Source of the DNA: Candidatus Omnitrophota bacterium | GTDB taxonomy: Bacteria; Omnitrophota; Gorgyraeia; Gygaellales; UBA12090 | Assembly (NCBI GenBank): GCA_030674475.1 | Contig: JAUSCZ010000041.1 | Coordinates: forward strand, 3,481-67,480 | DNA: 64,000 nucleotides | Reading direction: 5' to 3' | In this document: positions 22,027-64,000 of the stretch, one piece after another | Numbering within the stretch: position 1 is the first letter of the stretch | Layout: the number at the start of each line of letters is the position of its first letter | The notes under the pieces: generated by a model | The model's input: only the letters and a program-made list of their open reading frames with translations | Told to the model about the DNA's origin: nothing | Databases searched by the model: none | Translations under genes and position numbers: made by a program

Positions 22027-22045
22027 ATTGAAAATCATTTTCAAT
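22027..22045. promoter_or_regulatory. Fur-box-like perfect 9-1-9 palindrome upstream of fur
   Basis: ATTGAAAAT-C-ATTTTCAAT, close to the TGATAATNATTATCA Fur-box architecture. It lies about 55-70 nt upstream of the fur start. Confidence 0.5.
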
Positions 22046-22094
22046 TATACTTGAAAAAAAAATTATGTCAAGTAAAATCTGCCTCTGGCGCTTA

Positions 22095-22159
22095 CCCCGT
22101 TAGAGATAGGTTGCCAAAGGCAACCGTCGGACACCTTCGGTGTCCCATCTCTAACGGGG
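22095..22159. repeat. 65-bp structured palindromic element, family P1, copy 1 (intergenic)
   Basis: ccccgttagagatagg ... cccatctctaacgggg outer arms enclose hairpins ggttgccaaaggcaacc and ggacaccttcggtgtcc. Flanked by ctta/ctta. Confidence 0.8.
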
Positions 22160-22174
22160 CTTAGATTTTACTTG

Positions 22175-22194
22175 CCTGCCTGCCGGTAGGCAGG
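22175..22194. repeat. cctgcctgcc...ggcagg hairpin (family P3)
   Basis: cctgcctgccggtaggcagg. Related copies at 25723..25744, 26683..26706 and 9316..9362. Confidence 0.55.
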
Positions 22195-22303: not shown

Positions 22304-22379
22304 GTCATTCCCGTAATCTTTTAGCGGGAATCCAAAAATGAGTTTATCTGGATGCCCGACTAAAACATTCGGGCATGAC
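22304..22379. mobile_element. MITE-like element with gtcattcccg ... cgggcatgac terminal inverted repeats (family P2, copy X)
   Basis: gtcattcccgtaatcttttagcgggaatcca...ggatgcccgactaaaacattcgggcatgac. Same ends and internal hairpins as 47243..47345. Confidence 0.65.
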
Positions 22380-23357: not shown

Positions 23358-25625
23358 TTAATTCGGCGAATACCTCTCTTTGCCCTGCTCCACAAACAGC
23401 CCGGTATCCGCGATCAACAGCACTGCCCGGAAGTCCGGGGTAGTTTCTACTCCTCGCTCTTCCTTCAGCCAGCAAAGCCGCAGGAGAAGCGGTAATAATT
23501 GGATCTCTCTTTGCGCGTTAAAGGCGTCCTTCTGGGACATCGCCGCCAGTAAACGCTTAAGCCGGTCGGTTGAAACCTCTATCTTGGCATTAATCATCTG
23601 TTCCATTGCGGCCATTTCCCGGCTTATATCAATCCCCTCCAATTCCGCCTTACTCAACAGCGGCAGGCGCAGGTCCAACCCCTGGAAGCTTCCCATCGGC
23701 CGGGTGAGGTAGTTGATTCGGGTGAAGTCAATACCGCCGGTAGTTAACGGTGAATTACTATTTTGAGATAAGTCTTGAGTTAATGCCGAAGAGACCTCAT
23801 CCGATTTCAAAAGACCTAATTTATTGGCGGCGGCTTTTGATAAATTCTTGAATCCATCAACCAACGGTTTCAGCGCACTTTTAAGTTCTGGATCTGTAAT
23901 CTTCCCCACATCTTTAACTAAATTGCTTATCGCGCTATTTAAAACATCTAAATCTTTATCTTTCTCTATTCTAAGATCGGCATAATGGAAGTAACCATTA
24001 AATATCTCTCTCCATTTCGGATGATCCTTATAGCTACGAGATAATAAAGTAAGCTGATCCTTAATCGTTTTCTTGGTCTCCTCTACCGTCAGCGGCGAAG
24101 AGCCGGTCTCTTTCTCCTTCTCCAAATATTCTTGAGCTTCATTAAAAACATTAATTAGTTTTTTATCATTCGCATAGGTTCTACTCAGGGATTCAATTGT
24201 GTTGTTTAAGGCCTCAACAACCTTTTTTCTTTGCTCCCTATTCAAATCAGAGAAAGCACGCTTCAAATTTATCTTCCAACCTATATACGCGAACTCTACT
24301 CCTTCCCCATTACCTTCTCTCGCTATTTTTTCCAAATCAATAAGAAAACCATGATTAGCTGATGCTATTGCGTTCAATCTTTCTTGGCTTTCTATGATCC
24401 CAGTTGGCTCAGATAAATGGTTATGTATTGAACCGCCCACAAAAGCACCGCTCACGATAAGTATCGCAAGTCCGACAAGCGTAGACTTTTTCATCTTTGT
24501 TAATAGTGGACTTCCTGCCTTAAAACCGCCTTCAATTAAAGGCTTAGAGTTCCCGGTCATATCTGTTCCCCCGCTGACATAGCTCCTGATTACCTGGCCG
24601 GTGGGAGTGGTTATCTGTTCCTTAAGGTTGTATTCACCCTGCTGGAAGGACTTTTTGTATTCGCTAAAGTAGTAGTCCTTGGTCCAGGCCTCTTTTGAAA
24701 TAAGATTATCTAAGTTATGGCTGTCAATCAGGCTGGAGTATTGGCCGGGCTGGCCTCTGAACTTGTCCTTAAACCAGCGGGAAAGGATGAGCGAGAAAAA
24801 GACCTGGCGGAGTTGGGCGTATTTCTTGGAGGTATTGACCTCCTGGGTGAGCTTGGGCAGGATGAGTTCTCTAATTAGCTGGGTAGAGTATTGGTTGAGT
24901 TTCTTCATCCTTTGGTCATTAAAATTATACTGGTGACCTGGTGACATGGTGTCCTGGCGACTTTTAATGTAATCTTCCTCCAGCATCACTTTCAGGTTCG
25001 CCTTGTAGATATAGGATGAGTCTTCGCTTTCTCTGATTATTACCTCTCCCGGCACTATCCAGGGCCGAGTGATGGTGGGGATAGTAATGTTTTCAGTGCC
25101 GAATAATTCCCCAGCCCTCTTATACAGCTTATCCCAGTATTCTTTGCCTTCAGGAGTTTGGGGCGAGGTCCAACCGGCAGTATCTTTCTTTAGCTGTAAG
25201 TCCGCCTCCAGCATTATCTTACCCATATCGGTCTTTTCTAACTCCGGGTCTATAATCTGCTCCGGGGCATCCGGCCTAAGATTTACCCAAAACTTGTCGT
25301 TGGGTAAGGATAGACCTATCAAGAAATAATTGAATAGCTTCTTGGTCTCATTCTTAAGAGCATTCTCCGATTTCTCCGGTGACCTGGTGACCTGGTGACC
25401 TGGTGACTTCTCGAAGTCACCCTGGTCTAATAACAGCTTAAAGTCATTGCTTTTGATATCGTAAGAGATATACCGTAGGTGAGGGGGACGAAAGCTATCC
25501 GTATTCAAGGCCGACATTTGGTTCAGGTATTTGCCGATATTCAGCTCGGCTACTCCCTGAGCAAAGATGGGTTGGGTTAAAATCAGGCTATGGGATAGAA
25601 TTAAGGATATGGCTTTTTTGAACAT
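23358..25625 (-). CDS. Large hypothetical secreted/membrane protein (755 aa)
   Basis: Signal peptide and an internal TM (LVGLAILIVSGAFVGG). No recognisable catalytic motifs. It carries two in-frame copies of the octamer-repeat element. Confidence 0.5.
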   Translation of the reverse strand: MFKKAISLILSHSLILTQPIFAQGVAELNIGKYLNQMSALNTDSFRPPHLRYISYDIKSNDFKLLLDQGDFEKSPGHQVTRSPEKSENALKNETKKLFNYFLIGLSLPNDKFWVNLRPDAPEQIIDPELEKTDMGKIMLEADLQLKKDTAGWTSPQTPEGKEYWDKLYKRAGELFGTENITIPTITRPWIVPGEVIIRESEDSSYIYKANLKVMLEEDYIKSRQDTMSPGHQYNFNDQRMKKLNQYSTQLIRELILPKLTQEVNTSKKYAQLRQVFFSLILSRWFKDKFRGQPGQYSSLIDSHNLDNLISKEAWTKDYYFSEYKKSFQQGEYNLKEQITTPTGQVIRSYVSGGTDMTGNSKPLIEGGFKAGSPLLTKMKKSTLVGLAILIVSGAFVGGSIHNHLSEPTGIIESQERLNAIASANHGFLIDLEKIAREGNGEGVEFAYIGWKINLKRAFSDLNREQRKKVVEALNNTIESLSRTYANDKKLINVFNEAQEYLEKEKETGSSPLTVEETKKTIKDQLTLLSRSYKDHPKWREIFNGYFHYADLRIEKDKDLDVLNSAISNLVKDVGKITDPELKSALKPLVDGFKNLSKAAANKLGLLKSDEVSSALTQDLSQNSNSPLTTGGIDFTRINYLTRPMGSFQGLDLRLPLLSKAELEGIDISREMAAMEQMINAKIEVSTDRLKRLLAAMSQKDAFNAQREIQLLPLLLRLCWLKEERGVETTPDFRAVLLIADTGLFVEQGKERYSPN
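24930..24961. repeat. Degenerate copy of the ggtgacct-octamer element inside the 755-aa CDS (encodes ...SPGHQYNF...)
   Basis: ctggtgacctggtgacatggtgtcctggcgac flanked by attaaaa/ttttaat. Confidence 0.6.
25370..25409. repeat. 40-bp octamer-repeat element inside the 755-aa CDS (encodes SPGHQVTRSP)
   Basis: atttctccggtgacctggtgacctggtgacctggtgactt, followed by the hairpin ggtgacttctcgaagtcacc. Near-identical to 63157..63197 in leuS. Confidence 0.85.
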
Positions 25626-25722
25626 TTTTGTCCTTACTTAAATTTCCCAAATAAAAAACCGGACTTGGTCTTTCCTCGCATAAGGAAAAACCAAATCCGG
25701 CTGGGATATTCCGTGGCGTTTT

Positions 25723-25744
25723 GCCTGCCTGCCGGCAGGCAGGC
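25723..25744. repeat. Perfect 22-bp palindrome gcctgcctgccggcaggcaggc (family P3)
   Basis: Intergenic between the 755-aa gene start and the ZIP gene stop. No U-tract follows, so it is not a classic terminator. Confidence 0.6.
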
Positions 25745-26569: not shown

Positions 26570-26682
26570 TAACCTAAATTCGGCTTTCTGCCTTTATTGG
26601 CCTTTTTAGAACGCCAATTGAGCTTTCCTCTTCTTTTACGTTTACTCATTTCTTTCTTGTCTCCTTTCTAAACGCTAATTTA

Positions 26683-26706
26683 CCTGCCTGCCTGTAGGTA
26701 AGCAGG
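26683..26706. repeat. cctgcctgcc...ggtaagcagg hairpin (family P3) in the divergent intergenic region
   Basis: cctgcctgcctgtaggtaagcagg. Confidence 0.5.
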
Positions 26707-28522: not shown

Positions 28523-29830
28523 TCAAGGCAATGTTACTACTTGTTCATATAAGCTCTCAATATCTTTTATCAGCCTTTTTTTGGCGAATCTTTCCCGGAC
28601 GAATTCGCGGCCGGAGGCGGCCATCTTCCTTCTTATCTCTTCATTCCTCAGTAAGAAGTTCAAGGCCCCGGCAAAACTATCCGCGTCGCCAGGCCTCACC
28701 ATTATTCCTCTTTCGCGCGCGCTAAACCCCGTTAGAGGCAGGACGCCAGAGGCGTCCGACGGTTGCCTTCGGCAACCTGCCTCTAACGGGGTAAACCCAA
28801 GCTCATCCTTAGGTCCTTCTAAGCTCTCACCAACTAAATCCTTTACCCCGCCGGCATCGGTAGCCGCGATAACCTTACCTGAAGCCATTGCTTCTATTAA
28901 AGATACCGGCGTGCCTTCGTTGATTGAAGTCAGACAGACAATATCCAAATCCGAGTAAACTTCGGATAAATCCTTTTGCCAGCCGTTAAACTCCACCACC
29001 GAACTTAAATTCAGCTTTTGGGCAAATTCTTCAAGCTCAGCCCTTAATTCTCCATCGCCTATAATCTTAAATCTTAAATCCAGCGCGGGATTATCCCGGA
29101 TAACCTTGGCCGCGCCTTCCAAAAACAAACGATGATTTTTAATAGGCACCAGTCTTCCCACTATGCCGATATTTAAACAACGGTTGGCTTCTTTTCCCGA
29201 TGAAGCGGGATCCCGCATTCCTTGTATCGGGAGTCGGGAAAACGGAAGCCCTAAGAATCTATCTAATTCTAAGCCCAGAGGAATAACCTTAATCTTATCT
29301 GAACCGCTGATTCGTAAAGAAACCAGCTCTTTCTTAACCGCTAAACTTACCGTGATTATCCTTGAGCTAAAACAAGCTAAGAAGCGCTCAATAAAGATAA
29401 ATAATCGCGTTTTAAATCTGCCGAAATAGCCCTCAAAGACATGGCCGTGAAAGGTATGAATAAGCTTTGTTCGCCTCGCGGCCAAGAGATTATAAAATAT
29501 CCCGGCCAGCCTGCCTAATGTTCCGGCCTTGGCGGTATGGGTATGGATAATATCCGGATTTTCCCTCCTTATCAGTTTATATATTTTTAAAAACGCGATT
29601 ACATCATTCAGCGGATTTAATTCCCGTCTAAGCTCAGGGATAATATAAGGGACAACATTCCTGGCCCGGGCGTAATAAAGCATATCTCCTTCATCTTGAG
29701 CGATAGTGCCGCAGACCAAAAGCGAGTCAAATTTATCCTTGTTAAGACCCTCAGTGAGTAAAATCGCGTGAATTGCCGGGCCTCCGATATTAAGCCGGGC
29801 AATGACCCTTACTACCTTTATTTTCTTCAC
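28523..29830 (-). CDS. GT4-family glycosyltransferase carrying an in-frame 69-bp repeat-element insertion
   Basis: 435 aa with the N-terminal GGPAIH and C-terminal EGTPVSLIEAMASGKVIAATDAGG ... VRPGDADSFAGAL GT4 motifs. An extra 23-aa segment PLEAGCRRQPSDASGVLPLTGFS is encoded by P1 copy 2. Confidence 0.8.
   Translation of the reverse strand: MKKIKVVRVIARLNIGGPAIHAILLTEGLNKDKFDSLLVCGTIAQDEGDMLYYARARNVVPYIIPELRRELNPLNDVIAFLKIYKLIRRENPDIIHTHTAKAGTLGRLAGIFYNLLAARRTKLIHTFHGHVFEGYFGRFKTRLFIFIERFLACFSSRIITVSLAVKKELVSLRISGSDKIKVIPLGLELDRFLGLPFSRLPIQGMRDPASSGKEANRCLNIGIVGRLVPIKNHRLFLEGAAKVIRDNPALDLRFKIIGDGELRAELEEFAQKLNLSSVVEFNGWQKDLSEVYSDLDIVCLTSINEGTPVSLIEAMASGKVIAATDAGGVKDLVGESLEGPKDELGFTPLEAGCRRQPSDASGVLPLTGFSARERGIMVRPGDADSFAGALNFLLRNEEIRRKMAASGREFVRERFAKKRLIKDIESLYEQVVTLP
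28727..28791. repeat. 65-bp structured palindromic element, family P1, copy 2, inserted in-frame inside the GT4 CDS
   Basis: ccccgttagaggcagg...cctgcctctaacgggg are perfect 16-bp arms. Inner hairpins ggacgccagaggcgtcc and ggttgccttcggcaacc are in inverted order relative to copy 1. Flanked by taaa/taaa. 65 + 4 = 69 bp = 23 codons. Confidence 0.85.
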
Positions 29831-33141: not shown

Positions 33142-33208
33142 CCCCGTTAGAGGCAGGTTGCCGAAGGCAACCGTCGGATGCCTCTGGCGTCCTGCCTCCA
33201 ACTGGGTG
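33142..33208. repeat. Structured palindromic element, family P1, copy 3 (right arm degraded)
   Basis: ccccgttagaggcaggttgccgaaggcaaccgtcggatgcctctggcgtcctgcctccaactgggtg. One hairpin reads ggatgcc/ggcgtcc, a G-U-compatible pairing. Confidence 0.75.
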
Positions 33209-35524: not shown

Positions 35525-35547
35525 TTGAGGTTGAGGTTGAGGTTGAG
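35525..35547. repeat. Tandem hexamer (ttgagg)x3.5 in the M23 peptidase-lnt intergenic region
   Basis: ttgaggttgaggttgaggttgag. Related gaggtt/aacctc hexamer palindrome at 52633..52700. Confidence 0.6.
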
Positions 35548-35565
35548 AATTACTCAGCCTAAACC

Positions 35566-37131
35566 TTAACCTTTTTTTATTTTGCTCATTATACCATAAA
35601 AACACATAAGCGCAAAACATCCCAAGACAAAAACATCACCGATACTTTGATAAAGACTTTTTGATTTTGGGCTCAGAATAATGTCCTGAGTTTTTATGCC
35701 GGAGACAAAAATGTCTTTACCATTTTGAATAAGCCTGGAGATAACCCTGCCGCGGGAATCAATAAAACAGGATATTCCGGTGTTGGCCGAGCGCGCTAAA
35801 GGAAGCCTGTTTTCTACAGCCCGAAATACCGAAGCCGATAAATGCTGATAGGGAGCGGTAGTCTCTTTGAACCAGGCGTCGTTAGTGATATTCACCAAAA
35901 AGTCCGCTCCTTCTCTGGCGAAATTACGCGAGAGCTCAGGCAGGGTATCTTCAAAACAGATAAGCGCTCCAAATTTAGCGGATAGCGGATAGCGGATAGC
36001 GGATAGCAAAAATAAAGTATAATTATTACCAGCAGTAAAGTCTCCGATCGGAACGATACTCTCCAGAAATTTGAATGCGCCTTTTAAGGGAATATATTCT
36101 CCGAAAGGCACTAAATGCAGTTTATCATAACGGCCGGATATCCCAAATTCATTTATCAGCAGGGCGCTGTTAAAATATTTCCTTTTTTCTTTGACTACTG
36201 AGCCAACCAGCAGGGGAATTTTTATCTCCTTGGCCAGGTTAAAGATATTTTCGTTTACCCGCGCGTCAGACTCATCACCCAAGAAGCCGGGATTGGACGC
36301 CTCCGGCCAAATTATTAAATCCGGCTTAGCCAAAGCCGCTTCTTTAGTCAAACGGATGTATCTATCTAAAATAAAGGCCTGTGAACCAGAAGCCCATTTT
36401 AACTCCTGGGGAATATTGCCCTGGATTAAAGAAATTTTAAACAGCTTTCGGCTTTCGGCTGGCCAGAAGGCCGTGGTTGGGCCTCCGATGGCCCAAGCCA
36501 CTTTCGGCTTTCGGCTTAATTGATAATAGCCATAAACTAAAATTATAGAAAAACTTAACACGAAGACTGAGCATTTTCTTATTTTGCTTGAGGCTGAAAG
36601 CTTGAGGCTGAAAGCTGAGTATATTACTATATTCGCCATTACCACCAAAAAAGAAACACCGTAGGCGCCGAAAAGATCGGCAATCTGAATAATCGGAAGA
36701 TTTAAATATTGGGAATAGCCTAAAAGCGCCCAGCCGAATCCGGTCAAAAGATGAGCCCGCAGATATTCCAGGACAACCCAGAGGGAAGGAAGAAACAAAT
36801 AGTTGATAGTTGATAGTTGATAGTTGATAGTTGAGAAACATAAACCAAAAAATCCAAAATATAAAGATAAATATAAAATCAGGAGGATTTGGCCAAGCAG
36901 GGTAACGTGGACTAACCAATAGATGGTCAATGTCCAGAAAATTAGTCCGGTTAGATAAGATAATAAAAAGGCTTGAAGTTTAGATTTCTTCTGGAAGGAG
37001 AAAAATAAAGGCAGGAAGGCAAACCAGGCAAAAAACCAAAGCCGGCCCTCGAAAAACGGCAGGCTTAATAATACTCCGGAAATGATACTAAGAATTAAGG
37101 AACCGCGTTTACTAAGAAGGCCATAAACCAT
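35566..37131 (-). CDS. lnt: Apolipoprotein N-acyltransferase
   Basis: 521 aa with an N-terminal polytopic domain and a C-terminal CN-hydrolase domain (ICFED, Cys). It contains several in-frame tandem heptamer repeats. Confidence 0.8.
   Translation of the reverse strand: MVYGLLSKRGSLILSIISGVLLSLPFFEGRLWFFAWFAFLPLFFSFQKKSKLQAFLLSYLTGLIFWTLTIYWLVHVTLLGQILLILYLSLYFGFFGLCFSTINYQLSTINYLFLPSLWVVLEYLRAHLLTGFGWALLGYSQYLNLPIIQIADLFGAYGVSFLVVMANIVIYSAFSLKLSASSKIRKCSVFVLSFSIILVYGYYQLSRKPKVAWAIGGPTTAFWPAESRKLFKISLIQGNIPQELKWASGSQAFILDRYIRLTKEAALAKPDLIIWPEASNPGFLGDESDARVNENIFNLAKEIKIPLLVGSVVKEKRKYFNSALLINEFGISGRYDKLHLVPFGEYIPLKGAFKFLESIVPIGDFTAGNNYTLFLLSAIRYPLSAKFGALICFEDTLPELSRNFAREGADFLVNITNDAWFKETTAPYQHLSASVFRAVENRLPLARSANTGISCFIDSRGRVISRLIQNGKDIFVSGIKTQDIILSPKSKSLYQSIGDVFVLGCFALMCFYGIMSKIKKG
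35979..36006. repeat. Tandem heptamer (cggatag)x4 inside lnt CDS (encodes LSAIRYPLSA)
   Basis: gcggatagcggatagcggatagcggatagc. In-frame within the lnt reading frame. Confidence 0.85.
36445..36514. repeat. Paired ctttcggctttcgg direct repeats flanking a 42-bp hairpin-containing segment inside lnt CDS
   Basis: ctttcggctttcgg ... ttgggcctccgatggcccaa ... ctttcggctttcgg. Encodes SRKPKVAWAIGGPTTAFWPAESRKL in-frame. Confidence 0.7.
36585..36618. repeat. Tandem 14-15-mer (cttgaggctgaaag)x2 inside lnt CDS
   Basis: gcttgaggctgaaagcttgaggctgaaagctgag. Encodes FSLKLSASS in-frame. Confidence 0.7.
36801..36835. repeat. Tandem heptamer (agttgat)x4.5 inside lnt CDS (encodes STINYQLSTINY)
   Basis: agttgatagttgatagttgatagttgatagttgag. 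Confidence 0.85.
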
Positions 37132-40028: not shown

Positions 40029-40095
40029 CTTATGCGTTAAAGCAGAGGCGGTTTCTGATTTACAGGTTTGCTATAAACTATCAACTATAAACGGA

Positions 40096-41197
40096 TTACT
40101 TTTTCACTTTCTGCATTTTTAAATAAGCTTCAATAAACTTATCCAACTCTCCGTCCATTACCGCGTTGACATTGCCGGTTTCATACTCCGTGCGGTGATC
40201 CTTGACCATGCTGTAAGGATGCATTACATAGGAACGGATCTGGCTTCCCCACTCAATCTTTTGCTTCTTGGCGTATTCGGACTGAATCTTTTCTTCCTGC
40301 TTACGGCGCTCCTCTTCATAAAGCTTGGCCTTTAAGATATTCATGGCCGTCTGTTTATTCTGATACTGCGAGCGCTCATTCTGGCACTGCGCCACAATGC
40401 CGCTGGGCAGATGGGTTATCCGGACCGCTGAATCCGTGGTATTAACCGATTGCCCTCCGGGACCGCTGGAACGATAGACATCAATCCTTAAATCCCTCTC
40501 CTCGATTTTAATGTCAATCTCGCCTTCAATCTGGGGAACAACATCCACCGAGGCAAAAGAAGTATGCCGACGCTTATTGGAATCAAAGGGAGAAATCCGC
40601 ACCAGCCGGTGCACACCTGCCTCAGCCTTTAAGTAGCCGTAGGCATAAGGGCCTTCAATCAACAAAGTTACATTTTTTATCCCGGCCTCTTCCCCGTGCA
40701 GAATATCCGCGACCTTGGTCTTATAGCCTTTGGATTCGGCAAAACGGCAATACATCCTGAACAGCATATCCGCCCAATCGCAAGACTCCGTTCCTCCGGC
40801 CCCGGCATTTATGGAAAGAATAGCGCTGTTGGCGTCAAACTCCTGACTCAGAAGAAGCTTAAACTCTAAAGAATCTATGTCTTTTACTACAAGATCTAAA
40901 TTCTTATTTAATTCCAGGATTAACTGGGAATCTCCGGCAGTGGATATTTCCCCAAGCTCTTTTATGTCTTTGAGTTTAGCCTCGGCATCCTTAAAAGGCT
41001 GGATTCGGGTTCTTAGATTTTTTAACTCCCCAATTACCTTAAGCGATTCTTGGGATTCCTGCCAGAAATCCTGGGCGGACATCCGGACATTAAGTTCGTT
41101 TATCCGGCTTTCAGTATGAGCCAGGTCAAAGATAACCTCTAAGCTCATCGAGCTTTTTTTCTAAAGCGGCTATCCTGGTTTTAATCTCATCAAGCAT
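40096..41197 (-). CDS. prfB: Peptide chain release factor 2, with programmed +1 ribosomal frameshift at CTT-TGA-C (in-frame UGA at 41126-41128)
   Basis: ORF0 ATG at 41195-41197 encodes MLDEIKTRIAALEKKLDELRGYL. It is then followed by UGA within AGAGGTTATCTTTGAC, where an SD-like GAGG lies 3 nt upstream of the CUU slip site. The +1 frame continues DLAHTESRINELN... with a GGQ-containing body to 40096. The MSLEV start in the ORF track is an artefact. Confidence 0.9.
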
Positions 41198-43983: not shown

Positions 43984-44102
43984 CTCAATAATTATTGATT
44001 TTATTATTCGATCCCGAATTTATTTTCTTCAAAGGTATTCCTAATATGTTTTCCCATGCCTGGAAAGTAACCATCAAATTTCAAGACTTAACTCTTTTCT
44101 CC
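43984..44102. repeat. Island modular repeat, copy A (right two-thirds of the ~170-bp unit)
   Basis: aattattgattttattattcgatcccgaatttattttcttcaaa...gcctggaaagtaaccatcaaatttcaagacttaac. Shared with 48340..48472. The ORF-track entry 43995..44321 lies on it and is spurious. Confidence 0.8.
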
Positions 44103-44221
44103 CTATTATTATATATTTCGTTTTTTGTGTCTAACGATAAAGTTAAGCCGCCATTTTCCGCAGAGCAAAACGACGCGGGAAATGGCGGCTTCAACGCTTT
44201 GTTAGATGGTAATTTATTGTT

Positions 44222-44422
44222 TTATTCGATATCTATCTCTTTTTTTACGTCATTGAACGAAGTGGTAGGAATATCGGCTTCTTTTGATTTAGCGTCCCGC
44301 AGTGCTTTTAGAGCTTCGTAATCTTCAAGCTCTTCCTGAATTTGGACGAATTCCTCATAAGGCAATACGACGAATTCTTTTTTTCCATCTTTTTCTAAGA
44401 TTTTTGTATGTAACGATACCAT
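44222..44422 (-). CDS. Phd/YefM-type antitoxin
   Basis: 66 aa. KEFVVLPYEEFVQIQEELEDYEALKALRDAKS resembles YefM/Phd. Located 12 nt downstream of the RelE/ParE toxin gene. Confidence 0.6.
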   Translation of the reverse strand: MVSLHTKILEKDGKKEFVVLPYEEFVQIQEELEDYEALKALRDAKSKEADIPTTSFNDVKKEIDIE

Positions 44423-44433
44423 TTTCTTCCTCC

Positions 44434-44682
44434 TTATCGATATGCTTCTTTTCTATGCATAATACGGTAGATAATTATTTTATCCTTTTCTGTTTCAAAA
44501 AGAACCCTATAGTCACCTGCTCGCAGGCGATATTCGGGAGAATAATTAGTTAATTTTTTGACATCGCCTTGTAAATCATCGGATAAAACCTCAACTTTTG
44601 AAAATATCAATTGTAATGTTTTCTTATCGATCGATTTGCAGTCTTTTATAGCTTTGGGTTTAAACTCAACTTTATACTTCAT
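44434..44682 (-). CDS. RelE/ParE-family type II toxin
   Basis: 82 aa. YRLRAGDYRVLFETEKDKIIIYRIMHRKEAY is the characteristic C-terminal RelE/ParE motif. Confidence 0.7.
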   Translation of the reverse strand: MKYKVEFKPKAIKDCKSIDKKTLQLIFSKVEVLSDDLQGDVKKLTNYSPEYRLRAGDYRVLFETEKDKIIIYRIMHRKEAYR

Positions 44683-44866
44683 AAGATAATTATACCATAT
44701 TTTGGTGTAATTTCAGTATTTTCATCTAACGAAAAGCTCAGCGTTGCCAACCCCGGGCATTCGCTGGAGCGTCTTGTTAGGAATTTTTACTTTCTTCTAT
44801 TTCTTTTTCTAATCTCAGTTTTATGTCTCTCCTCTAAACCCGCGCCCGTGCTTACTGCCTCAAATA

Positions 44867-45274
44867 TTAGGGTTCGATGGGTACAATTCGCAGCATATCC
44901 TTCGTAAGCTCAGTCACTCTATATGACTCCGTTATATCACCTTTAATTATCTGAAGGATACTTTTGCGCGGATCAAATCTCCACTTTCCAGACTTGAAAT
45001 GGTGAGCATCGTCGGGAGACAAATAATACCATTCACAATCACCATTTTTGTAGAAGATATATTGCATTCTGAATCGGCTTCCCGGAAATTCTTTGAAATC
45101 TTTCGGGCGGTATATTGAGTCTTTATCAGCTTGCTGTTGTTCCTCGAACGAATGGACCCAGTGCTGATATAAGTACTCTGGCGTCTTGGGTTTTGGAGAG
45201 GCGGATGGTGGGCTGTCTTCTGCCAATAAATATGATCCGCCAATGAGCATCACGATAAGTAGCAATATTTTCAT
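44867..45274 (-). CDS. Hypothetical secreted protein
   Basis: 135 aa with a signal peptide (MKILLLIVMLIGGSYLLA). No family recognised. Confidence 0.4.
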   Translation of the reverse strand: MKILLLIVMLIGGSYLLAEDSPPSASPKPKTPEYLYQHWVHSFEEQQQADKDSIYRPKDFKEFPGSRFRMQYIFYKNGDCEWYYLSPDDAHHFKSGKWRFDPRKSILQIIKGDITESYRVTELTKDMLRIVPIEP

Positions 45275-45282
45275 ATTTTGAT

Positions 45283-45440
45283 TTCAGCCTAACGAAATGG
45301 CTAACCCGCCGGGGCATCCACCATCGCAAAAAACTTTAGGGGTCAAACCCGGACATTAGACATTATCTCATCTTTTCCTTAAAAATTACACAATAGTTAT
45401 TGATTTTATTATTCAATTCCGAATTTCTTTTCTTCAAAGC
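45283..45440. repeat. Island modular repeat, copy B (left two-thirds of the unit)
   Basis: ...ctttaggggtcaaacccggacattagacattatctcatcttttccttaaaaattacacaatagttattgattttattattcaattccgaatttcttttcttcaaa. The upstream part (tttcagcctaacgaaatggctaacccgccggggcat) recurs at 44713..44790. Confidence 0.8.
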
Positions 45441-45573
45441 TAAAAACTCTCGCGCTTTATCACTACACCATTGCCTTAACCCACCCGAATAATCATTAAT
45501 TGTCTTCTATTCATCATCCCGCGTATTGTTTTTCAGACCAACCATACATTGCTCAAATGTTTTGATTATGAAT

Positions 45574-46380
45574 TCAGGAGGGCGTAAGGCCTAAATTTTT
45601 TAGTTTACTTATTTCATTCTGATTATATACCCCACTTTTTTCAAGAAGAAATCCTATTGCCTGATGATAAGGATAAACAAAAGCTAACTTCTTTAAAGTT
45701 CTTATTAGATTTTCAATAGAAATCCCTTCTTTTGCTAGTTTATAACAATTTAATATTTCTAATATACCATTCGTATATGATGGCCGAACAACAATATCAA
45801 TTAATGTTCTTTCTAAATTTGTTACTAATACCTTATTTTGATTGAAATATGCTTCTATAACACCGCACATATTAGTATTTTGGCCATTCAATAAATAAAC
45901 CTTATATTCCTTAAAATTAGCTATGTTGGTTGTGACTCGCTGTGTTCTTGAAAATGCAAAATCAATTCTCCCTTGGGATAAGGAAGAGGAATAATTGGAC
46001 GCGGAACTTCTTCTTTGCTCAAAATTTACATAAATTTTGTCTGGTGGGTCATTAATTAACTTGTGAATATATAGCGCTGTTCGGTGTGTATAATATAGAT
46101 TTTTTATAAATGAGAGACAGTATACCCATACGGAAACATCTCCCCAGCTAAAAAGAGAATATTCACGGTTAGGGAATTTAATTGAGGTCTTCTTTAAGTC
46201 TGTACGTTTTAGTAATAATTCTAAAAACTTGAAAGCTGTCATGGTGTTAGGTAGGTCCCATTCCAATCTTTTATCTTCTAGAATGTTCACTATTTCGGTA
46301 AAGGTAAAGATTGATTTCTTGGCTTGTTTGAAATAGTTTTTAATTACATCAAGTTTTGTCTCAAATTTTGAAATTTTCAT
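45574..46380 (-). CDS. Uncharacterised 268-aa protein (possible Abi-like/HEPN-like defense component)
   Basis: No transmembrane or signal features. It contains an R-x5-H segment (HRTALYIH) compatible with, but not proving, a HEPN Rx4-6H motif. It stands alone between island repeat B and the hipB promoter region. Confidence 0.3.
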   Translation of the reverse strand: MKISKFETKLDVIKNYFKQAKKSIFTFTEIVNILEDKRLEWDLPNTMTAFKFLELLLKRTDLKKTSIKFPNREYSLFSWGDVSVWVYCLSFIKNLYYTHRTALYIHKLINDPPDKIYVNFEQRRSSASNYSSSLSQGRIDFAFSRTQRVTTNIANFKEYKVYLLNGQNTNMCGVIEAYFNQNKVLVTNLERTLIDIVVRPSYTNGILEILNCYKLAKEGISIENLIRTLKKLAFVYPYHQAIGFLLEKSGVYNQNEISKLKNLGLTPS

Positions 46381-46638
46381 TTTTTAGATAAGTTTTAAGT
46401 TAAAATTGAGCTTAACTCCTACCGGTATAGTATAAATACTATATCGGTAGAAAGTCAAGTATTTTCTCATTTTCTTCAGTTTAATTATACCCTTTAAGGT
46501 GTAATTATCAAATTTTTTAAATAAAACATTGGCTATTATGCCCTTTAAGGACTATTTGTTTATAATAAAACCCTATCAGGTATAAAAATTTAAAAAATAC
46601 TTGCAATTATACCCGAAAGGTGGTATATTCTTATCACC

Positions 46639-46890
46639 ATGGCCCACTTTCCAATTAATATACAGATTAAGAATCTACGAAAAAAGCTGGGTTTAACTCA
46701 AGTCGATTTCGCGAAAAGAGCAGGGGTAGGTTTGCGTTTCTTAAGAGAGCTGGAAGAAGGCAAGCCTACGGTGCGGTTAGATAAGCTTAATCAAGTTTTG
46801 GATTTCTTGGGTGTTCATCTGGAAATAGCGCGCAATGAAAATATAAAATCTGAATGGACAGATAACAACAAACTTGAAGCAGAATTATGA
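46639..46890 (+). CDS. hipB: HipB-like XRE-family HTH antitoxin/regulator
   Basis: 83 aa with an HTH (LRKKLGLTQVDFAKRAGVGLRFLRELEEGK). The stop overlaps the start of the next gene (ATGA). Confidence 0.7.
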   Translation: MAHFPINIQIKNLRKKLGLTQVDFAKRAGVGLRFLRELEEGKPTVRLDKLNQVLDFLGVHLEIARNENIKSEWTDNNKLEAEL

Positions 46891-47210
46891 AAGAACTTAG
46901 AAAAGGGCAGGTTTTTTTCAATAAGGACTTGGCCGGGGACATTAGCGAAACGAAAGACGGCTATCTTTTTGAATATGATAAAGATTTTTTAAAAAAAAAT
47001 ATACCTGTTTCTATGTCGTTACCTCCCAGAGAAGAGCCTTATGAATCTAAAGAATTATTTCCTTTTTTTAAAGGCCTTTTGCCTGAAGGCTGGTATTTAG
47101 ATATTGTTACCGCTACCCAAAAGGTTGATAGGGAAGACTTGTTTGGTATCCTTCTTTGCACTACGAGCGGTGATACCATTGGCGCGGTAACGGTTCGCAA
47201 GATAGAATGA
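46887..47210 (+). CDS. HipS-like protein (HipA N-terminal subdomain homolog)
   Basis: 107 aa. The YLFEYDKDF...PVSMSLPP... pattern matches the HipA N-terminal (Couple_hipA) region, here as a separate ORF in a HipB-HipS-HipT gene order. Confidence 0.6.
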   Translation: MKELRKGQVFFNKDLAGDISETKDGYLFEYDKDFLKKNIPVSMSLPPREEPYESKELFPFFKGLLPEGWYLDIVTATQKVDREDLFGILLCTTSGDTIGAVTVRKIE

Positions 47211-47242
47211 ACATCATTGCTGTCCAGGTTAGCCATTACAGC

Positions 47243-47345
47243 GTCATTCCCGCAATCTTTTAGCGGGAATCCACGACGAGAGTATTTTCTGGATACCCGC
47301 TTTTCCCGCATAGCGGGATCCCGTAAAGCGGGACGCGGGTATGAC
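47243..47345. mobile_element. MITE-like element (family P2, copy Y) inserted between hipS-like and hipT-like genes
   Basis: gtcattcccgcaatcttttagcgggaatcca...ggatacccgc[ttttcccgcatagcgggatcccgtaaagcgggac]gcgggtatgac. Same termini as 22304..22379, with a nested extra hairpin module. Confidence 0.65.
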
Positions 47346-47407
47346 AAATTCAATATCTCAAAATTCCGTTCCAGTCGACAAGTAATAACTAATTTGGACA
47401 CGAGTGA

Positions 47408-48274
47408 ATGAACATAAAACTTATTAAAGAGATGTTTAATACTTCTAAACTGCCGATAATAGATTTCGGCTTGGAAGATGTTTCTCAAAAAGCGCAGAAA
47501 TCGGCGGGGAAGTTATCCATTTCCGGGGTTCAGCCGAAATTATCCATGAAGCTTGATAAGAAAAATAATGCGTTAATTTCTGTTGCTGAAGGCGGAGAAT
47601 ATATTTTAAAACCCCAAACCGTGGCTTTCCCGAATATTCCTGAGAATGAACAGTGTTGTATGGACATAGCGGCGGAGTTTAAGATAGCTGTTCCTCCTCA
47701 TTGTCTCTTGCCTTTAAAAGATAAAAGCTGGGCGTATATTGTGAAAAGATTTGACAGGGAATCAGGCGTGAAAATCCATCAGGAAGAATTCTTTCAAATA
47801 TTAGAATCAGGAAATAAATACCAAGGTTCCGTTGAACAAATTGGGCGTAAATTAAAAGAAATATCTACCGCGCCCGGATATGACGTGCAATTATTTTTTG
47901 AGAGGGTTGTCTTTAATTTTATTATTGGAAACGGAGACGCCCATTTAAAGAACTATTCAATCGCGTATAAGGATAAAGAAACTATCCGCTTAACGCCGGC
48001 CTATGATATGGTATGTTCAAAATTGGTGATTCCGGATGAAGAAGATTCCGCCTTATCTATCAACGCCAAAAAGAATGAACTGAAAAGAGATGATTTTGAT
48101 AAGTTGGCGGAGTATTTAAATATACCGATAAGAATTCGCTATGAAAAATTCGAAAAGAGCTTGATTTTAATGGAAACAATAATTAAAAATTCAAAAATTA
48201 AGCAAGAGATTCAGGAGCGATTTATTAACATCATTAAAGAGCGCTTATCACGTATGAACATAGCGGCAGAATAA
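47408..48274 (+). CDS. HipT/HipA-like serine/threonine kinase toxin (kinase core)
   Basis: 288 aa with the ISGVQPKLSM P-loop-like motif and the catalytic GNGDAHLKN (D-x-H-x-K-N) motif of HipA-family kinases. Confidence 0.7.
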   Translation: MNIKLIKEMFNTSKLPIIDFGLEDVSQKAQKSAGKLSISGVQPKLSMKLDKKNNALISVAEGGEYILKPQTVAFPNIPENEQCCMDIAAEFKIAVPPHCLLPLKDKSWAYIVKRFDRESGVKIHQEEFFQILESGNKYQGSVEQIGRKLKEISTAPGYDVQLFFERVVFNFIIGNGDAHLKNYSIAYKDKETIRLTPAYDMVCSKLVIPDEEDSALSINAKKNELKRDDFDKLAEYLNIPIRIRYEKFEKSLILMETIIKNSKIKQEIQERFINIIKERLSRMNIAAE

Positions 48275-48283
48275 AGAAAAGTT

Positions 48284-48472
48284 TAAAAAGCTTTAAGGGC
48301 CACCCGGACATTAGATACCATCTAATCTTTTCCTTAAAAATTAGAGACAATACTTAATTATTGATTTTATTATTCGATCCCAAATTTTTTCTTCAAAAAT
48401 ATCCCTTATTTGCTTTCCCCTGCCTGGAAAGTAACCATCAAGTTTCAAGACTTAACCTTTTTCTTTTCTCCG
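48284..48472. repeat. Island modular repeat, copy C (full-length ~170-190-bp unit)
   Basis: ctttaagggccacccggacattagataccatctaatcttttccttaaaaattagagacaatacttaattattgattttattattcgatcccaaatttttt...gcctggaaagtaaccatcaagtttcaagacttaacc. The ORF-track entry 48361..48591 is spurious. Confidence 0.8.
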
Positions 48473-48833
48473 GCATAGATGCTTTTAGCATCTCAAACAG
48501 CCTGTCTTTGATATTCAGCGATTCCCGCTCCGCTTTTTGGATATTCTTATTTTTTACCATTTCCCGGTCTTTCTTTCAACAATTTCTCTAGGTGATAACT
48601 TTGCATCTTGTTAGGCTTCGATTTACTGTTGAACCACCTATTAACTGTAACGCGGAAAATCTGCGATAGGTTTCTTACTTTCTAAGATATTTATGATCAA
48701 AATAAAAAGGATAAATTTTATCCCTTAACAAGATGGTTCCAATTGCTATGAGAGCTATACCACAATATGTTAAGAATGTTCCCATGTCTTCCTTTTCTCC
48801 GTTTCGAACTCTCCGCGCGTGTTCTCTTTACGC

Positions 48834-49475
48834 CTAAGAAGTTAAGAATCGATTTAATTCATTTACTAAAAAATGCACAGTCGTAGAAGGTCTCCTTAAG
48901 CTAGCTGTATGAATAGGCAGATATTGTGACATTAGTTTTTCAGCGTTTCTTATGCCATCATTCTGTTTGCTTAGAATAAGATCATACATTTCTATGCTAT
49001 TCTTTGTATAGGGCTTCCCTAATAACTCACTTAGTCTTTTGATGTATTCGGGACGATTCCTAGCATTTTGCGTATAATGGAAATGAAGCAAATACCATAA
49101 TTCAAAACACTCATTTGAGTAAGCAATATTGATTTTGTGTTTTCTTGCTAGTGAAATAGCCTTTTCAAAATTTTTATCCGGGTTGTCGTCTTTATCAAAC
49201 ACACACCAAATTTGGTCAAATTTTATACCATATCTTGCAGCCGCTTCTTTATGCTTTATTGTTTTTTCTACAAGAGACACTGTGTTATCGCCTATCCCAA
49301 ATATTTCATCTTCTACCTGAGAGGAAGTTAAACGAAAACTTCGAAAATAATTTGGTTCAGTTTTTTCGCCCTCACAGATAATTAGAAACGTTTCTCGCAC
49401 AGGTTTGACAGCGACCCTTCGCTTAAGAATTCCCGACTGTTTTCTTTTCCAAAACGCGCTATCCGGCTCTTTCAT
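48834..49475 (-). CDS. RloB-like protein (AbiLii-like; Toprim-like)
   Basis: 213 aa with the N-terminal FLIICEGEKTEPNYF signature of the RloB family. It overlaps the upstream ATPase gene by 4 nt. Confidence 0.65.
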   Translation of the reverse strand: MKEPDSAFWKRKQSGILKRRVAVKPVRETFLIICEGEKTEPNYFRSFRLTSSQVEDEIFGIGDNTVSLVEKTIKHKEAAARYGIKFDQIWCVFDKDDNPDKNFEKAISLARKHKINIAYSNECFELWYLLHFHYTQNARNRPEYIKRLSELLGKPYTKNSIEMYDLILSKQNDGIRNAEKLMSQYLPIHTASLRRPSTTVHFLVNELNRFLTS

Positions 49476-50722: not shown

Positions 50723-51020
50723 GATTCGCTCCTTTTCCAGTATTACGTGTCATTAATTATATAATAGATGGCTAATTTCACCTAAAATTGCAAAAAATGA
50801 GTTTATAGTCTACTTTTTTAAGTATATAACAAATATACATCAAAAATTTAAAATGTCAACATTTTTTGTGAAATATTCTCAAAAAATAAGTTTATTTATA
50901 TATGCGCGGCTAGATAGCCGTCCTAATTTCTATGTGAATTCAAGAGGTAGGAGGTTTCAGGGTTATTCCGCGAGAGGCTCGGCATGCCACACCACCGAGT
51001 TTTGCAACAGTCCCAAGATG

Positions 51021-61877: not shown

Positions 61878-64000
61878 TTAAATTACTATGTTTACCAATT
61901 TTCCGGGAACCACGATAATTTTCTTTGCCGGCTTATCCTCAATCCACTTCTTTATTCCCGGCTCGTTCAGACAACGCTGTTTTAATTCCTCTTCCGCGAT
62001 ATCTTTGCTGACCACGATAGTGCCTCGGTGTTTACCGTTTATCTGAATCACGATGGTGATATTTTCTTCCGTCAGCAGGCTTTCATCGGCTCGCGGCCAT
62101 GGGGCTCGCGTTATGCTTTCGCTGTGGCCTAAGCCCTGCCAGAGCTCCTCGCTAAAGTGCGGGGCAATCGGAGAAATTAAGACAACTAACTGGGAAAAAA
62201 CCTCTTTATCCGCTCCTGACTGATATATGGCATTAACCAACTCCATCAGGCCGGCGATAGCGGTGTTGAATTTAAATTCCTCTATATCGGCGGTAACCTT
62301 TTTGATGGCCTTATGCAGAGCGCGGTAAACTTGAAGGTCGGCCTTTTCTTTTAAGTTATCCTGGATGCGCCAGAGGCGGTTGAGAAATTTAAAGGCCCCC
62401 TCTATCCCCCGGTCATCCCACTCCAGCTCAGTCTCCGGGGGAGCGGCAAAAAGGATAAACAACCTTAAGGTATCCGCGCCGTATTTCTGAATTATGGAAT
62501 CCGGGTCAACAATATTGCCCCGGGATTTTGACATTACCTCGCCGTCTTTTAAAACCATACCCTGGGTGAGCAGGGATTTAAAAGGTTCGTGGAAATCTAT
62601 CATTCCCAAATCCTGAAAGAACTTGGTGAAAAAACGCGAATATAACAAATGTAGGATGGCGTGCTCAATCCCGCCGATGTATTGATCAACCGGCATCCAA
62701 TATTTGGCTTCTTTAACGTCAAACGGATTATTCTCATCTTGGGGTGAACAGAATCTCAAGAAATACCAGGAAGAATCAAAGAAGGTGGCCATAGTATCGG
62801 TTTCCCGGCGGGCTTTTTCCTGGCATTTAGGACAAACGGTATCCACAAATTCCTTAACCTTGCCTAAAGGACTACCCCCCTCACCGGTAAAAGGCGCATC
62901 TTCAGGAAGCTCCACCGGTAGGGCCTCGTAGGGCACCGGAACAATCCCGCATTTCGGGCAATAAACAATCGGAATAGGTGTTCCCCAATAACGTTGGCGG
63001 GAGATAAGCCAATCCCGAAGCCGCCAATGGGTTACAATTTTACCCATACCCTCTTTCTCCATCCATTGGGCAATTTTAATCTTAGCCTCTTGGTTCGCCA
63101 GGCCGTCAAACTCCCCGGAATTAACCTGTAGACCATCACCCTCATAGGCTTCCCTCATTTCTTCCGGTGACCTGGTGACCTGGTGACCTGGTGACTTTAT
63201 CACAATTCGCATTGGCAAATTGTGTTCTTTAGTAAACAAGAAATCCCTCTGGTCATGGGCAGGCACAGCCATAATCGCGCCTGTGCCGTATTCCATCAAC
63301 ACATAGTCGGCAATCCAGACCAGAATAACTTCCCGGTTAACCGGATTAATGCAATAGGCCCCGGTCCAAACCCCTTCTTTTTTTACATCTTCTTTAACCC
63401 GGGATATTTTGCTCTCCTGAGATACCCTCTCTATAAAGGTTAAGGCCTCTTTTTCTTGCGGTCTACCCCGGATAATCTCTTTTACTAAGGGGTGTTCCGG
63501 CGCCAAAACCACATAGGTTGCCCCGAAAATAGTATCCGCTCGGGTGGTAAAGACCGTAATTACCTTATCGCTATCTTTCAGGCGAAAATATATTTCCGTC
63601 CCCTGGCTCTTTCCAATCCAGTTGCTCTGCATGGCGATAACCCGCGGGGGCCATTTATCCAACTGCTTCAAATCCTCCAGCAGACGCTCCTTGTATTCGG
63701 TAATCTTCAGATACCACTGTTCCAGCTCTTTCTGCTCCACCGGACTGTGGCACCTCCAGCATTCACCCTCAATAACCTCTTCATTGGCCAGAGTGGTTGA
63801 GCAGGAAGGGCACCAGTTAACCCCGGAGGCCTTTTTATACGCTAAGCCGCGCTCAAACATCTTCAGGAATATCCACTGGTTCCATTTATAATAACTGCTG
63901 TCGCAGGTGGAAAGCTCCCGCTCCCAATCATAGGAAAAACCCATCTTCTTTAATTCCACCTTCATCCACTCAATACACTTATGGGTCCAATCATCCGGCT
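61878..64000 (-). CDS. leuS: Leucyl-tRNA synthetase, C-terminal ~700 aa (N-terminus beyond the window end); carries an in-frame octamer-repeat insertion
   Basis: Editing-domain and anticodon-binding regions with a KMSKS motif (VMSKSRGN). The ORF-track start at 63965 is internal. The inserted segment SPGHQVTRSP is encoded by 63157..63197. Confidence 0.9.
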   Translation of the reverse strand, partial: PDDWTHKCIEWMKVELKKMGFSYDWERELSTCDSSYYKWNQWIFLKMFERGLAYKKASGVNWCPSCSTTLANEEVIEGECWRCHSPVEQKELEQWYLKITEYKERLLEDLKQLDKWPPRVIAMQSNWIGKSQGTEIYFRLKDSDKVITVFTTRADTIFGATYVVLAPEHPLVKEIIRGRPQEKEALTFIERVSQESKISRVKEDVKKEGVWTGAYCINPVNREVILVWIADYVLMEYGTGAIMAVPAHDQRDFLFTKEHNLPMRIVIKSPGHQVTRSPEEMREAYEGDGLQVNSGEFDGLANQEAKIKIAQWMEKEGMGKIVTHWRLRDWLISRQRYWGTPIPIVYCPKCGIVPVPYEALPVELPEDAPFTGEGGSPLGKVKEFVDTVCPKCQEKARRETDTMATFFDSSWYFLRFCSPQDENNPFDVKEAKYWMPVDQYIGGIEHAILHLLYSRFFTKFFQDLGMIDFHEPFKSLLTQGMVLKDGEVMSKSRGNIVDPDSIIQKYGADTLRLFILFAAPPETELEWDDRGIEGAFKFLNRLWRIQDNLKEKADLQVYRALHKAIKKVTADIEEFKFNTAIAGLMELVNAIYQSGADKEVFSQLVVLISPIAPHFSEELWQGLGHSESITRAPWPRADESLLTEENITIVIQINGKHRGTIVVSKDIAEEELKQRCLNEPGIKKWIEDKPAKKIIVVPGKLVNIVI
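63157..63197. repeat. 40-bp octamer-repeat element inside leuS (encodes SPGHQVTRSP), followed by the hairpin cacaattcgcattggcaaattgtg
   Basis: atttcttccggtgacctggtgacctggtgacctggtgactt. Identical core to 25370..25409. Confidence 0.85.

Follow-up and report, generated by a model that had tools for sequence, protein, structure and literature searches.

A family of miniature palindromic elements with 4-bp target duplications, one member of which lies in frame in a glycosyltransferase gene of Candidatus Omnitrophota

Three Copies of a Palindromic Element in an Omnitrophota Contig

The present analysis concerns a stretch of 64,000 nucleotides from a Candidatus Omnitrophota bacterium (assembly GCA_030674475.1, contig JAUSCZ010000041.1), termed the window in the following, and a palindromic element of 65 bp that is present there in three copies, one of them inside a gene for a GT4-type glycosyltransferase (Table 1). 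All positions are window coordinates unless another contig is named. The copies had been pointed out in an earlier note made from the sequence alone. The observation as described there is confirmed: all three copies were found, the first two exactly at the positions given, while the third ends at 33206 and not at 33208.

Table 1. Copies of the palindromic element in the window, their parts and the gene that harbors copy 2.
Feature	Position	Strand	Remarks
Copy 1, 65 bp	22095-22159		Intergenic, between DsbA-like gene and Fur gene; inverted relative to copy 2
Copy 1, target duplication CTTA	left 22091-22094, right 22160-22163		Direct repeat
Copy 2, 65 bp	28727-28791		Within glycosyltransferase open reading frame, in frame; perfect 16-bp terminal inverted repeats
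Copy 2, hairpin GGACGCC-AGA-GGCGTCC	28741-28757		
Copy 2, hairpin GGTTGCC-TTC-GGCAACC	28761-28777		
Copy 2, target duplication TAAA (coding strand TTTA)	left 28723-28726, right 28792-28795		Direct repeat
Copy 3, 65 bp	33142-33206		Intergenic, between 78-aa open reading frame and BNR-repeat gene
Host gene, GT4-type glycosyltransferase, 435 aa	28523..29830	-	Pfam Glyco_transf_4 and Glycos_transf_1

With regard to the outer arms, the 16-bp inverted repeats that had been ascribed to the element are perfect in copy 2, the arm of which reads CCCCGTTAGAGGCAGG. Copy 1 carries the arms CCCCGTTAGAGATAGG and CCCATCTCTAACGGGG, while the right arm of copy 3 (CCTGCCTCCAACTGGG) is degenerate, as is its flanking repeat (TTAA / TGAA). 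When decay is allowed for in copy 3, all three copies possess the terminal inverted repeats CCCCGTTAGAG / CTCTAACGGGG. At three or fewer mismatches, the 16-mer arm of copy 2 matches the window six times, i.e., once per arm of each copy, compared with 0.46 matches expected by chance, and six matches were reached in none of 100 shuffles. Scanning the window with a covariance model of the element recovered these three copies only. The 4-bp direct repeats reported for the flanks are present on both sides of copy 1 as well as of copy 2.

The orientation of copy 2 is opposite to that of copies 1 and 3, in agreement with the description of its interior as the reverse complement of that of copy 1. Once copy 2 is reversed, the alignment reveals ends, a central CCGTCGG and a hairpin architecture common to all three copies. 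The 65-mer is an almost perfect long palindrome consisting of two similar halves with one hairpin each. Each copy folds in one of two competing ways, as a long hairpin or as an outer stem enclosing two hairpins with 7-bp stems and 3-nt loops. The energies lie between -41 and -50 kcal/mol, and the z-scores relative to shuffled sequences between -6 and -9. Copy 3 is located at the base of a long stem, rich in G+C, that is followed by a T run. Copy 1 sits between the end of the DsbA-like gene and a perfect promoter consensus (TTGACA-16-TATAAT, 22044-22071, minus strand), which is found upstream of the Fur gene at a distance of 24 bp from the copy.

An In-Frame Insertion in a Glycosyltransferase Gene

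Together with one copy of its duplication, the element in the glycosyltransferase gene comprises 69 bp and accounts for 23 codons, residues 347-369 (TPLEAGCRRQPSDASGVLPLTGF), and the open reading frame is unbroken, as had been stated for this insertion. The nearest relatives of the protein fall into two groups, one with 395-428 aa and 82-88% identity that is devoid of exactly TPLEAGCRRQPSDASGVLPLTGF, and one with 90-92% identity that contains it. In orthologues with 87-88% identity the alignment shows a gap of exactly 23 residues, which bears out the expectation of a lineage-specific segment. More distant homologues carry the source name Candidatus Omnitrophota.

Ratios of nonsynonymous to synonymous substitution rates (dN/dS) amount to 0.22 between two orthologous genes that both bear the insert and to 0.23-0.27 in comparison with insert-free orthologues. 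Judging from these values, the glycosyltransferase gene is still under purifying selection and, as far as sequence can tell, still works. In an AlphaFold2 model built from 75 homologues, the predicted local distance difference test score (pLDDT) has a mean of 86 and falls below 50 at residues 341-343 and 345-365, between a helix (329-333) and a strand (369-372). The 23-residue insert is predicted to lie in this disordered, low-confidence loop, which is in line with the earlier suggestion to look for a loop position on a structural model.

A second spot of variable length occurs in the same protein family around residues ~215-230 (L002 ~3040-3100), where some orthologues contain 11-16 extra residues (P0003, P0004, P0007, P0010). 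In L002, a contig of a relative, this spot features a repeated GGGATCC motif, and the ends of the 65-bp element's family are absent from it.

Empty and Filled Sites in Related Genomes

The syntenic contig of a relative (L001, ~86% identical) is empty at the positions of copies 2 and 3 and exhibits a single TTTA at each. At the place of copy 2 it reads GGGTTTAGC, compared with GGGTTTA[65 bp]TTTAGC on the coding strand of the window, and at the place of copy 3 it reads GTGTTTACCCCGCGCC; zero copies are present across its 21 kb of syntenic DNA. The contrast between single TTTA in the empty and double TTTA in the filled state is therefore available for two of the three window loci, and the claimed duplication of the target at copy 2 is verified by the single TTTA of the empty site. 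The copy 3 site is filled in L122, a contig of a closer relative, with TTTA / TTAA as flanks, and also in L151 and L161. The flanks in L122 identify the TTCA / TTAA of the window (read on the opposite strand) as a decayed TTTA duplication. The region of copy 1 is covered by three syntenic contigs of ~88% identity (L155, L187, L192), and two of these, L187 and L192, contain a 64-bp copy 1 flanked by CTTA as in the window.

The glycosyltransferase site itself occurs in further states. In L002 (3501-3622), a 65-bp copy is followed in tandem by a 53-bp element, with three copies of TTTA. The 53-bp element has the same 13-bp ends as the 65-bp copy and an unrelated interior, and it adds 57 further bp with the frame being kept. 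In L122 (11040-11107), a 68-bp variant occupies the same site and adds a net 72 bp, likewise without loss of the frame. The first hairpin of this variant reads CCCCGCC-AAA-GGCGGGG where the window copy has GGTTGCC-GAA-GGCAACC. This site has been hit or rewritten more than once, which would make it either an insertion hot spot or a place of conversion between copies. Conversely, identical copies occur at different sites: a 65-mer identical to copy 2 of the window resides inside the lpxB gene of a relative (L219), flanked by a TAAA duplication.

[quoted passage not shown] We consider the three copies to be members of a family of such non-autonomous DNA transposons and put the probability of this explanation at roughly 0.85. 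The core of the earlier reading, i.e., small palindromic mobile elements with one copy in frame in a glycosyltransferase gene, is supported.

Distribution and Diversity of the Element Family

Genomes, one per species, were scanned for the pattern CCCCGTTAGAG, 30-60 bases, CTCTAACGGGG, with exact 11-bp ends being demanded here as in the other scans, and at least 118 stretches were retrieved. Among the matches listed, record titles assign ~66 to Patescibacteria lineages, 24 to Planctomycetota, 15 to Omnitrophota and four to Nitrospirota, in addition to one each to Ratteibacteria, Cloacimonadota, Elusimicrobia, Desulfobacterales and a gammaproteobacterium, while four are unclassified. The family is consequently present in bacteria, mostly uncultured, of at least six phyla, and further copies outside the window number in the hundreds. 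Several matches are located on contigs that measure 160 kb to 1.7 Mb, such that mis-binning is not the whole explanation for this distribution.

The interiors of the elements are alike within one genome and unrelated between species. All retrieved members have the terminal inverted repeats CCCCGTTAGAG / CTCTAACGGGG at both ends, and the family consensus can be written as 5'-CCCCGTTAGA(G/A)...(C/T)TCTAACGGGG-3'. Sizes range from 29 to ~120 bp, or up to 182 bp when tandem or nested copies are counted; bystander copies in the same loci stretch the size range to 29-119 bp and include tandem and nested arrays. The minimal members of 29 bp contain no internal hairpin.

A sister subfamily with the ends CCCCGTTAGAA...TTCTAACGGGG was noticed on the same contigs as the GAG type (L126 814-860, L171 665-724, L183 1221-1273 and others). 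Its members measure 29 to 117 bp, mostly follow the length rule 3n+2 described below and exhibit 4-bp duplications, too.

As to the route of spread, a scan of viral contigs returned one copy only, and phages are therefore not an obvious carrier. A BLAST search of copy 2 against plasmids gave chance partial matches only. A literature search of incomplete coverage, which leaves a prior description possible, retrieved no description of the element family, a search with the end sequence met with chance primer matches only, and none was found for MITEs of Patescibacteria, Omnitrophota or Planctomycetes.

Target Duplication and Frame Neutrality

Of 126 copies, 83 are flanked by perfect direct repeats with a length of exactly 4 bp, as against 0.5 expected. 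Repeats of 5 bp were found five times (0.12 expected), while none of the lengths 2, 3 and 6-8 bp exceeded chance. The target logo is (G)T-N-N-A(C), with T in the first position and A in the fourth at 84% each, while the outer G and the outer C each reach 47%. The commonest of the 79 perfect duplications are TTTA/TAAA (25) and TCAA/TTGA (16), and TGAA/TTCA is also common. As an additional observation, palindromic duplications are rare: only three of the 79 are of this kind (TTAA, TATA and TGCA, one each; loci L003-L120), although about one quarter of T-N-N-A sites would be expected from base composition.

A number of established systems were considered as well. An IS200/IS605-type insertion beside a fixed tetranucleotide was rejected, given that the four bases at the flanks differ between copies and represent a genuine duplication. 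The YTAR target of IS5-type elements fits only five of the 79 duplications. An integron attC site was dismissed by inspection, since the order of the GTT/AAC core motifs is the reverse of that in attC on either strand.

Element lengths are biased toward keeping the reading frame. Adding four to the length gives a multiple of three for 75 of 123 targeted copies and for 28 of 44 bystander copies, i.e., for 62% overall compared with one third expected; by our own arithmetic, the excess of 3n+2 lengths amounts to ~7-8 standard deviations, and it extends to 73 of 121 distinct sequences. An element of length 3n+2 plus a 4-bp duplication adds whole codons. Moreover, the stop codons TAG and TAA are present in only one frame of the ends, and the other two frames are stop-free in either orientation, the peptides derived from the ends being (T/A)PLE...(P/S)LTG or PVR...SNG(V/A). 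Among members of length 3n+2, an average of 2.59 out of the four usable frames is free of stops, compared with 2.06 ± 0.11 for shuffled interiors, and all four are open in 26% as against 10% ± 3.7% after shuffling; members of other lengths show no such excess.

Residence in frame is frequent. Spanning open reading frames, defined as those extending at least 120-150 nt on both sides of the copy, enclose 21 genome copies as well as 19 of the 68 metagenome sites. The peptide of the window's subfamily was found in LpxB, GvpK, QueH and QueD-type proteins, these being few matches out of 20 candidates considered. Within subfamilies, the lengths of intergenic copies are the same as those of intragenic ones.

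A Subfamily With Two Hairpins

The pronounced fold of the window copies is not a property of the whole family, the interiors of which have a median z-score of -0.4, with 19-28% below -3 or -2. The two-hairpin interior marks one subfamily, and most family members are unstructured inside. A metagenome scan for the arms of this subfamily returned 91 stretches from 68 distinct sites with 53 distinct sequences, nearly all of 65 or 68 bp. In an alignment of 45 distinct 65-mers, which had been prefiltered for at least 75% hairpin pairing at the expense of very few sequences, 98.1% of the cells are standard-paired, compared with 35-46% when partners are slid. In twelve pairs both partners have changed; ten of these pairs belong to the 14 of the hairpins, and the observed values were reached in none of 500 shuffles; covariation was seen also in a smaller version with 11 sequences. 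The architecture of 7-bp stems, 3-nt loops and a GAC linker is constant across Omnitrophota, Planctomycetota and Patescibacteria, although the sequences of the stems differ considerably.

The covariation analysis that had been proposed for the element thus gave a strong signal in the hairpins, and the compensatory exchange from A:T to G:C that had been pointed out in one of them is present. The further argument, that a G-U-compatible change in copy 3 and the compensatory substitutions speak for selection on a folded structure, can be maintained only in part. The T.G wobble in copy 3 exists, yet it is no evidence for RNA: G.T wobbles number 16 and A.C pairs, which are wobbles on the other strand, 21, and from this lack of strand bias nothing points to one transcribed strand. 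Strong as the covariation is, it pertains to one subfamily only, and resident copies decay without compensation. The old orthologous copy in L002 differs from the window copy at four of 65 positions, all four of which break pairs, and copy 3 is similarly eroded.

On these grounds it is very unlikely that the element is a structured RNA of the host, such as a terminator, an mRNA stabilizer or a riboregulator, in which covariation would stem from selection on the transcript. Such a role would suit the very stable fold, the strong hairpin covariation and the intergenic location of copies 1 and 3 near a promoter-like site and near the G+C-rich stem with its T run, respectively. It is at odds, apart from the wobbles, the uncompensated decay and the unstructured interiors of most of the family, with the occurrence of copies in both orientations and both open frames inside unrelated genes. 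In addition, neither in the window nor in seven loci did any Rfam 15 family, apart from one tRNA, reach its gathering score, and the matches below threshold were weak ones to generic microRNA hairpins only.

A second alternative concedes that the element is a MITE and attributes the complementarity of its hairpins to correction of palindromes at the DNA level by template switching or intrastrand repair, such that the structure would be without a role. The strand-symmetric conservation, the existence of single-step intermediates with one mismatch and the differences in whole hairpin modules between copies at one orthologous site are all compatible with this mechanism. Old resident copies, including copy 3, have however gathered uncorrected mismatches, which indicates that correction is inefficient in place, and stems of 7 bp, loops of 3 nt and the 3-nt GAC linker are kept over unrelated hairpin sequences in different phyla. 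We therefore deem this alternative improbable, though less so than a host RNA. The simplest reading is that the structure is maintained through the copies that spread and not at the host locus. As hairpins are kept in spreading copies and lost in resident ones, they most likely serve propagation, e.g., by binding of a transposase or host factor or by folding of single-stranded DNA, and probably not the host.

Relation to Known Repeats and Transposable Elements

The Rickettsia palindromic elements (RPEs), to which the element had been likened, measure 105-146 bp, are known from Rickettsia and are listed with an unknown target duplication (Ogata et al., 2000, 2002, as summarized in PMC2229807); they are palindromes with short terminal repeats that are fused in frame in conserved genes (PMC2229807; PMC10969869). 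The parallel holds for the behavior: both are small palindromes with short terminal inverted repeats that occur between genes as well as in frame inside genes, with the host protein predicted (or shown) to stay functional. Membership is a different matter. The present family ranges from 29 to ~120 bp (65 bp for the window copies), resides in at least six phyla compared with Rickettsia and relatives in Wolbachia, has a clear 4-bp target duplication and follows the 3n+2 rule across unrelated interiors. It is best described as a MITE, and an origin from the RPE family proper by horizontal transfer, for which the in-frame fusion of a palindrome with short terminal repeats in conserved genes could be adduced, is so improbable that it hardly deserves consideration, the two being set apart here by their descriptions.

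Bacterial MITEs include Correia/NEMIS, ERIC, RUP, YPAL and Nezha (PMC2229807; PMC3184786; PMC10969869). Most of those described have 100-200 bp, are A+T-rich and either end in TA or duplicate TA (PMC2229807). A survey from 2024, which covered 183,232 genomes and names none of Patescibacteria, Omnitrophota and Planctomycetes, found 97-98% of the MITE clusters to be genus-specific and most copies to be intergenic (PMC11602168). The family described here shares with bacterial MITEs the terminal inverted repeats, the target duplication, the noncoding nature, the high copy number, the empty and filled sites and the potential to form stem-loops, and in-frame fusions are also found for the 107-bp Correia element, ERIC and YPAL. 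It differs from the surveyed MITEs by its 11-bp end common across phyla, its 4-bp TNNA duplication and its frame-preserving lengths; this comparison is a loose one, as the survey clustered whole sequences at 95% identity.

Repetitive extragenic palindromic (REP) sequences and their doublets, REPINs, are likewise short and G+C-rich palindromes, sometimes arranged as inverted doublets in long hairpins, and are abundant between genes. REPs carry a conserved GTAG, and no target duplications are known for them. The 65-mer, as a nearly perfect palindrome of two hairpin-bearing halves, could be taken for a doublet of this type spread on single-stranded DNA by a REP-associated tyrosine transposase (RAYT), and G+C-rich 7-bp hairpins with strand-symmetric conservation would suit the recognition of DNA hairpins. 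In the present family, on the other hand, a duplication of exactly 4 bp is the norm, the tetranucleotide is single at empty sites, the outer inverted repeat and not the hairpins is conserved, members of 29 bp are hairpin-free and copies reside inside genes. With the duplication present and GTAG absent from the element, we reject membership in this group, for which we see only a very slight chance. No HUH-type gene was noticed near the copies, though no direct search was made.

Finally, the ends and targets invite comparison with piggyBac, the ends of which start with CCC and which duplicates TTAA and rarely the variants TAAA, TCAA and CTAA (PMC10813416), and with the IS1380 family, of which the members inspected start with CCTGAA (IS1678), CCCACA (IS1247) and CCTAGA (ISEcp1), IS1678 having a 5-bp repeat. 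Common features are CC(C) ends (CCCC here), a 4-bp duplication (4-5 bp in IS1380) and targets flanked by T and A. Beyond CC, however, end similarity is nil, TTAA accounts for only one of the 79 duplications, and no IS1380-like open reading frame was found in 1.35 Mb of related loci. Among known groups, piggyBac/IS1380 comes closest in its hallmarks, and as a mobilizer, a piggyBac/IS1380-like enzyme may be entertained as a tentative lead, suggested by these hallmarks and in itself rather doubtful.

Proposed Mode of Propagation and Search for a Transposase

If the copies are MITEs, a transposase supplied in trans would bind both ends and make cuts in the target that are staggered by 4 bp, with the four bases being duplicated upon repair. 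DDE-type transposases usually act by such staggered cutting followed by repair duplication. In a tolerant surface loop, an insertion would leave the protein intact because whole codons are added and the ends are stop-free in two of three frames. The glycosyltransferase may serve as an instance with its 69 bp, 23 residues and predicted disordered loop. Elements of this type could persist in small, gene-dense genomes, where insertions mostly land in genes.

Several points weigh against this explanation or parts of it. No autonomous element with these ends was found in the 1.35 Mb of related loci, and there is no transposase gene in the window or among the recurrent neighboring genes that were scanned, so that the transposase step is proposed on the basis of the hallmarks. 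Owing to the exact 11-bp ends demanded in the scans, the conservation of the ends is not judgeable from the copies retrieved, and the taxon counts and copy numbers of the genome scan are lower bounds. The complementarity of the hairpins could come from template switching in palindromic DNA instead of selection. Likewise, the excess of 3n+2 lengths could reflect survivorship inside genes and not an adaptation of the element, two possibilities that the criterion of a spanning open reading frame cannot separate.

With regard to candidates for a transposase, distant pairs of ends in all loci proved to be tandem or neighboring small copies with no transposase between them, and unpaired ends belong to truncated copies. 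The recurrent neighboring open reading frames are housekeeping genes (PilB-type ATPase, ABC transporters, LeuRS). A profile of three IS1380 transposases found no match among 4199 open reading frames of related loci, a small and biased sample, and extension of the window contig by 4.6 kb yielded neither copies nor transposases. An IS3-type transposase in L122 was discarded as a partner because its surroundings are unrelated. On the same contig, which belongs to the closest relative, another palindromic element with the ends CCCGGTTTCACCCCGCCCTTTC / GAAAGGGCGGGGTTCACCGGGG is located beside a remnant of an IS3-type transposase (4175-4244).

In a wider sense, the family might represent an undescribed superfamily of translation-neutral miniature transposons that is distributed across several phyla and multiplies by living inside protein loops, possibly by means of a piggyBac/IS1380-like transposase; for this proposal we consider the odds to be about even. 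On this view, the 3n+2 length, the 4-bp duplication and ends that are read, in two frames and either orientation, as Pro/Gly/Asn/Ser-containing peptides suited to loops would enable it to multiply in the small and gene-dense genomes of Patescibacteria, Omnitrophota and Planctomycetota. If it is true, the Rickettsia case would be one example of a general strategy, and the family would continually supply conserved enzymes with loop insertions. So far, selfish DNA that is in frame in conserved genes has been regarded as peculiar to Rickettsia. The family described here behaves in the same way and is common to several mostly uncultured phyla, some with small, gene-dense genomes, and its frame neutrality is measurable statistically. 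If confirmed, the finding would explain some lineage-specific loop insertions in proteins of these organisms, serve as a warning to annotators and structure predictors with respect to short foreign segments in conserved enzymes, provide natural markers of strain-level history and suggest the existence of a transposase that passes between phyla and has a strictly conserved end sequence.

Other Repeats and Features of the Window

The window contains several further repeats. A small G+C-rich hairpin, TTGCCTGCCTGCCGG(T/C)AGGCAGG, is present in three copies (22172-22194, 25721-25743 and 26680-26702) that are intergenic and close to gene ends; these hairpins may act as terminators or represent a further family of small repeats. 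The 31-bp repeat GTCATTCCCG(T/C)AATCTTTTAGCGGGAATCCA, which contains a palindrome, occurs at 22304-22334 and, 25 kb apart, at 47243-47273 with 97% identity. Runs of the octamer GGTGACCT are located at 24921-24971, 25367-25417 and 63155-63213 inside two large open reading frames, 23358..25625 (without a Pfam match) and 61878..63965, and one stretch of 35 bp is identical between the two.

An A+T-rich island extends over ~44000-51000 with a G+C content of 0.34-0.39 compared with ~0.45 elsewhere. Besides HipA-like, RloB and AAA_21 genes it comprises several segments that are repeated within it, and it resembles an island with defence or toxin functions. Runs of the heptamers AGGTTGA and GTTGATA form inverted pairs at distances of 3-17 kb, namely 35525-35573 / 52644-52689 and 36789-36830 / 40071-40105.

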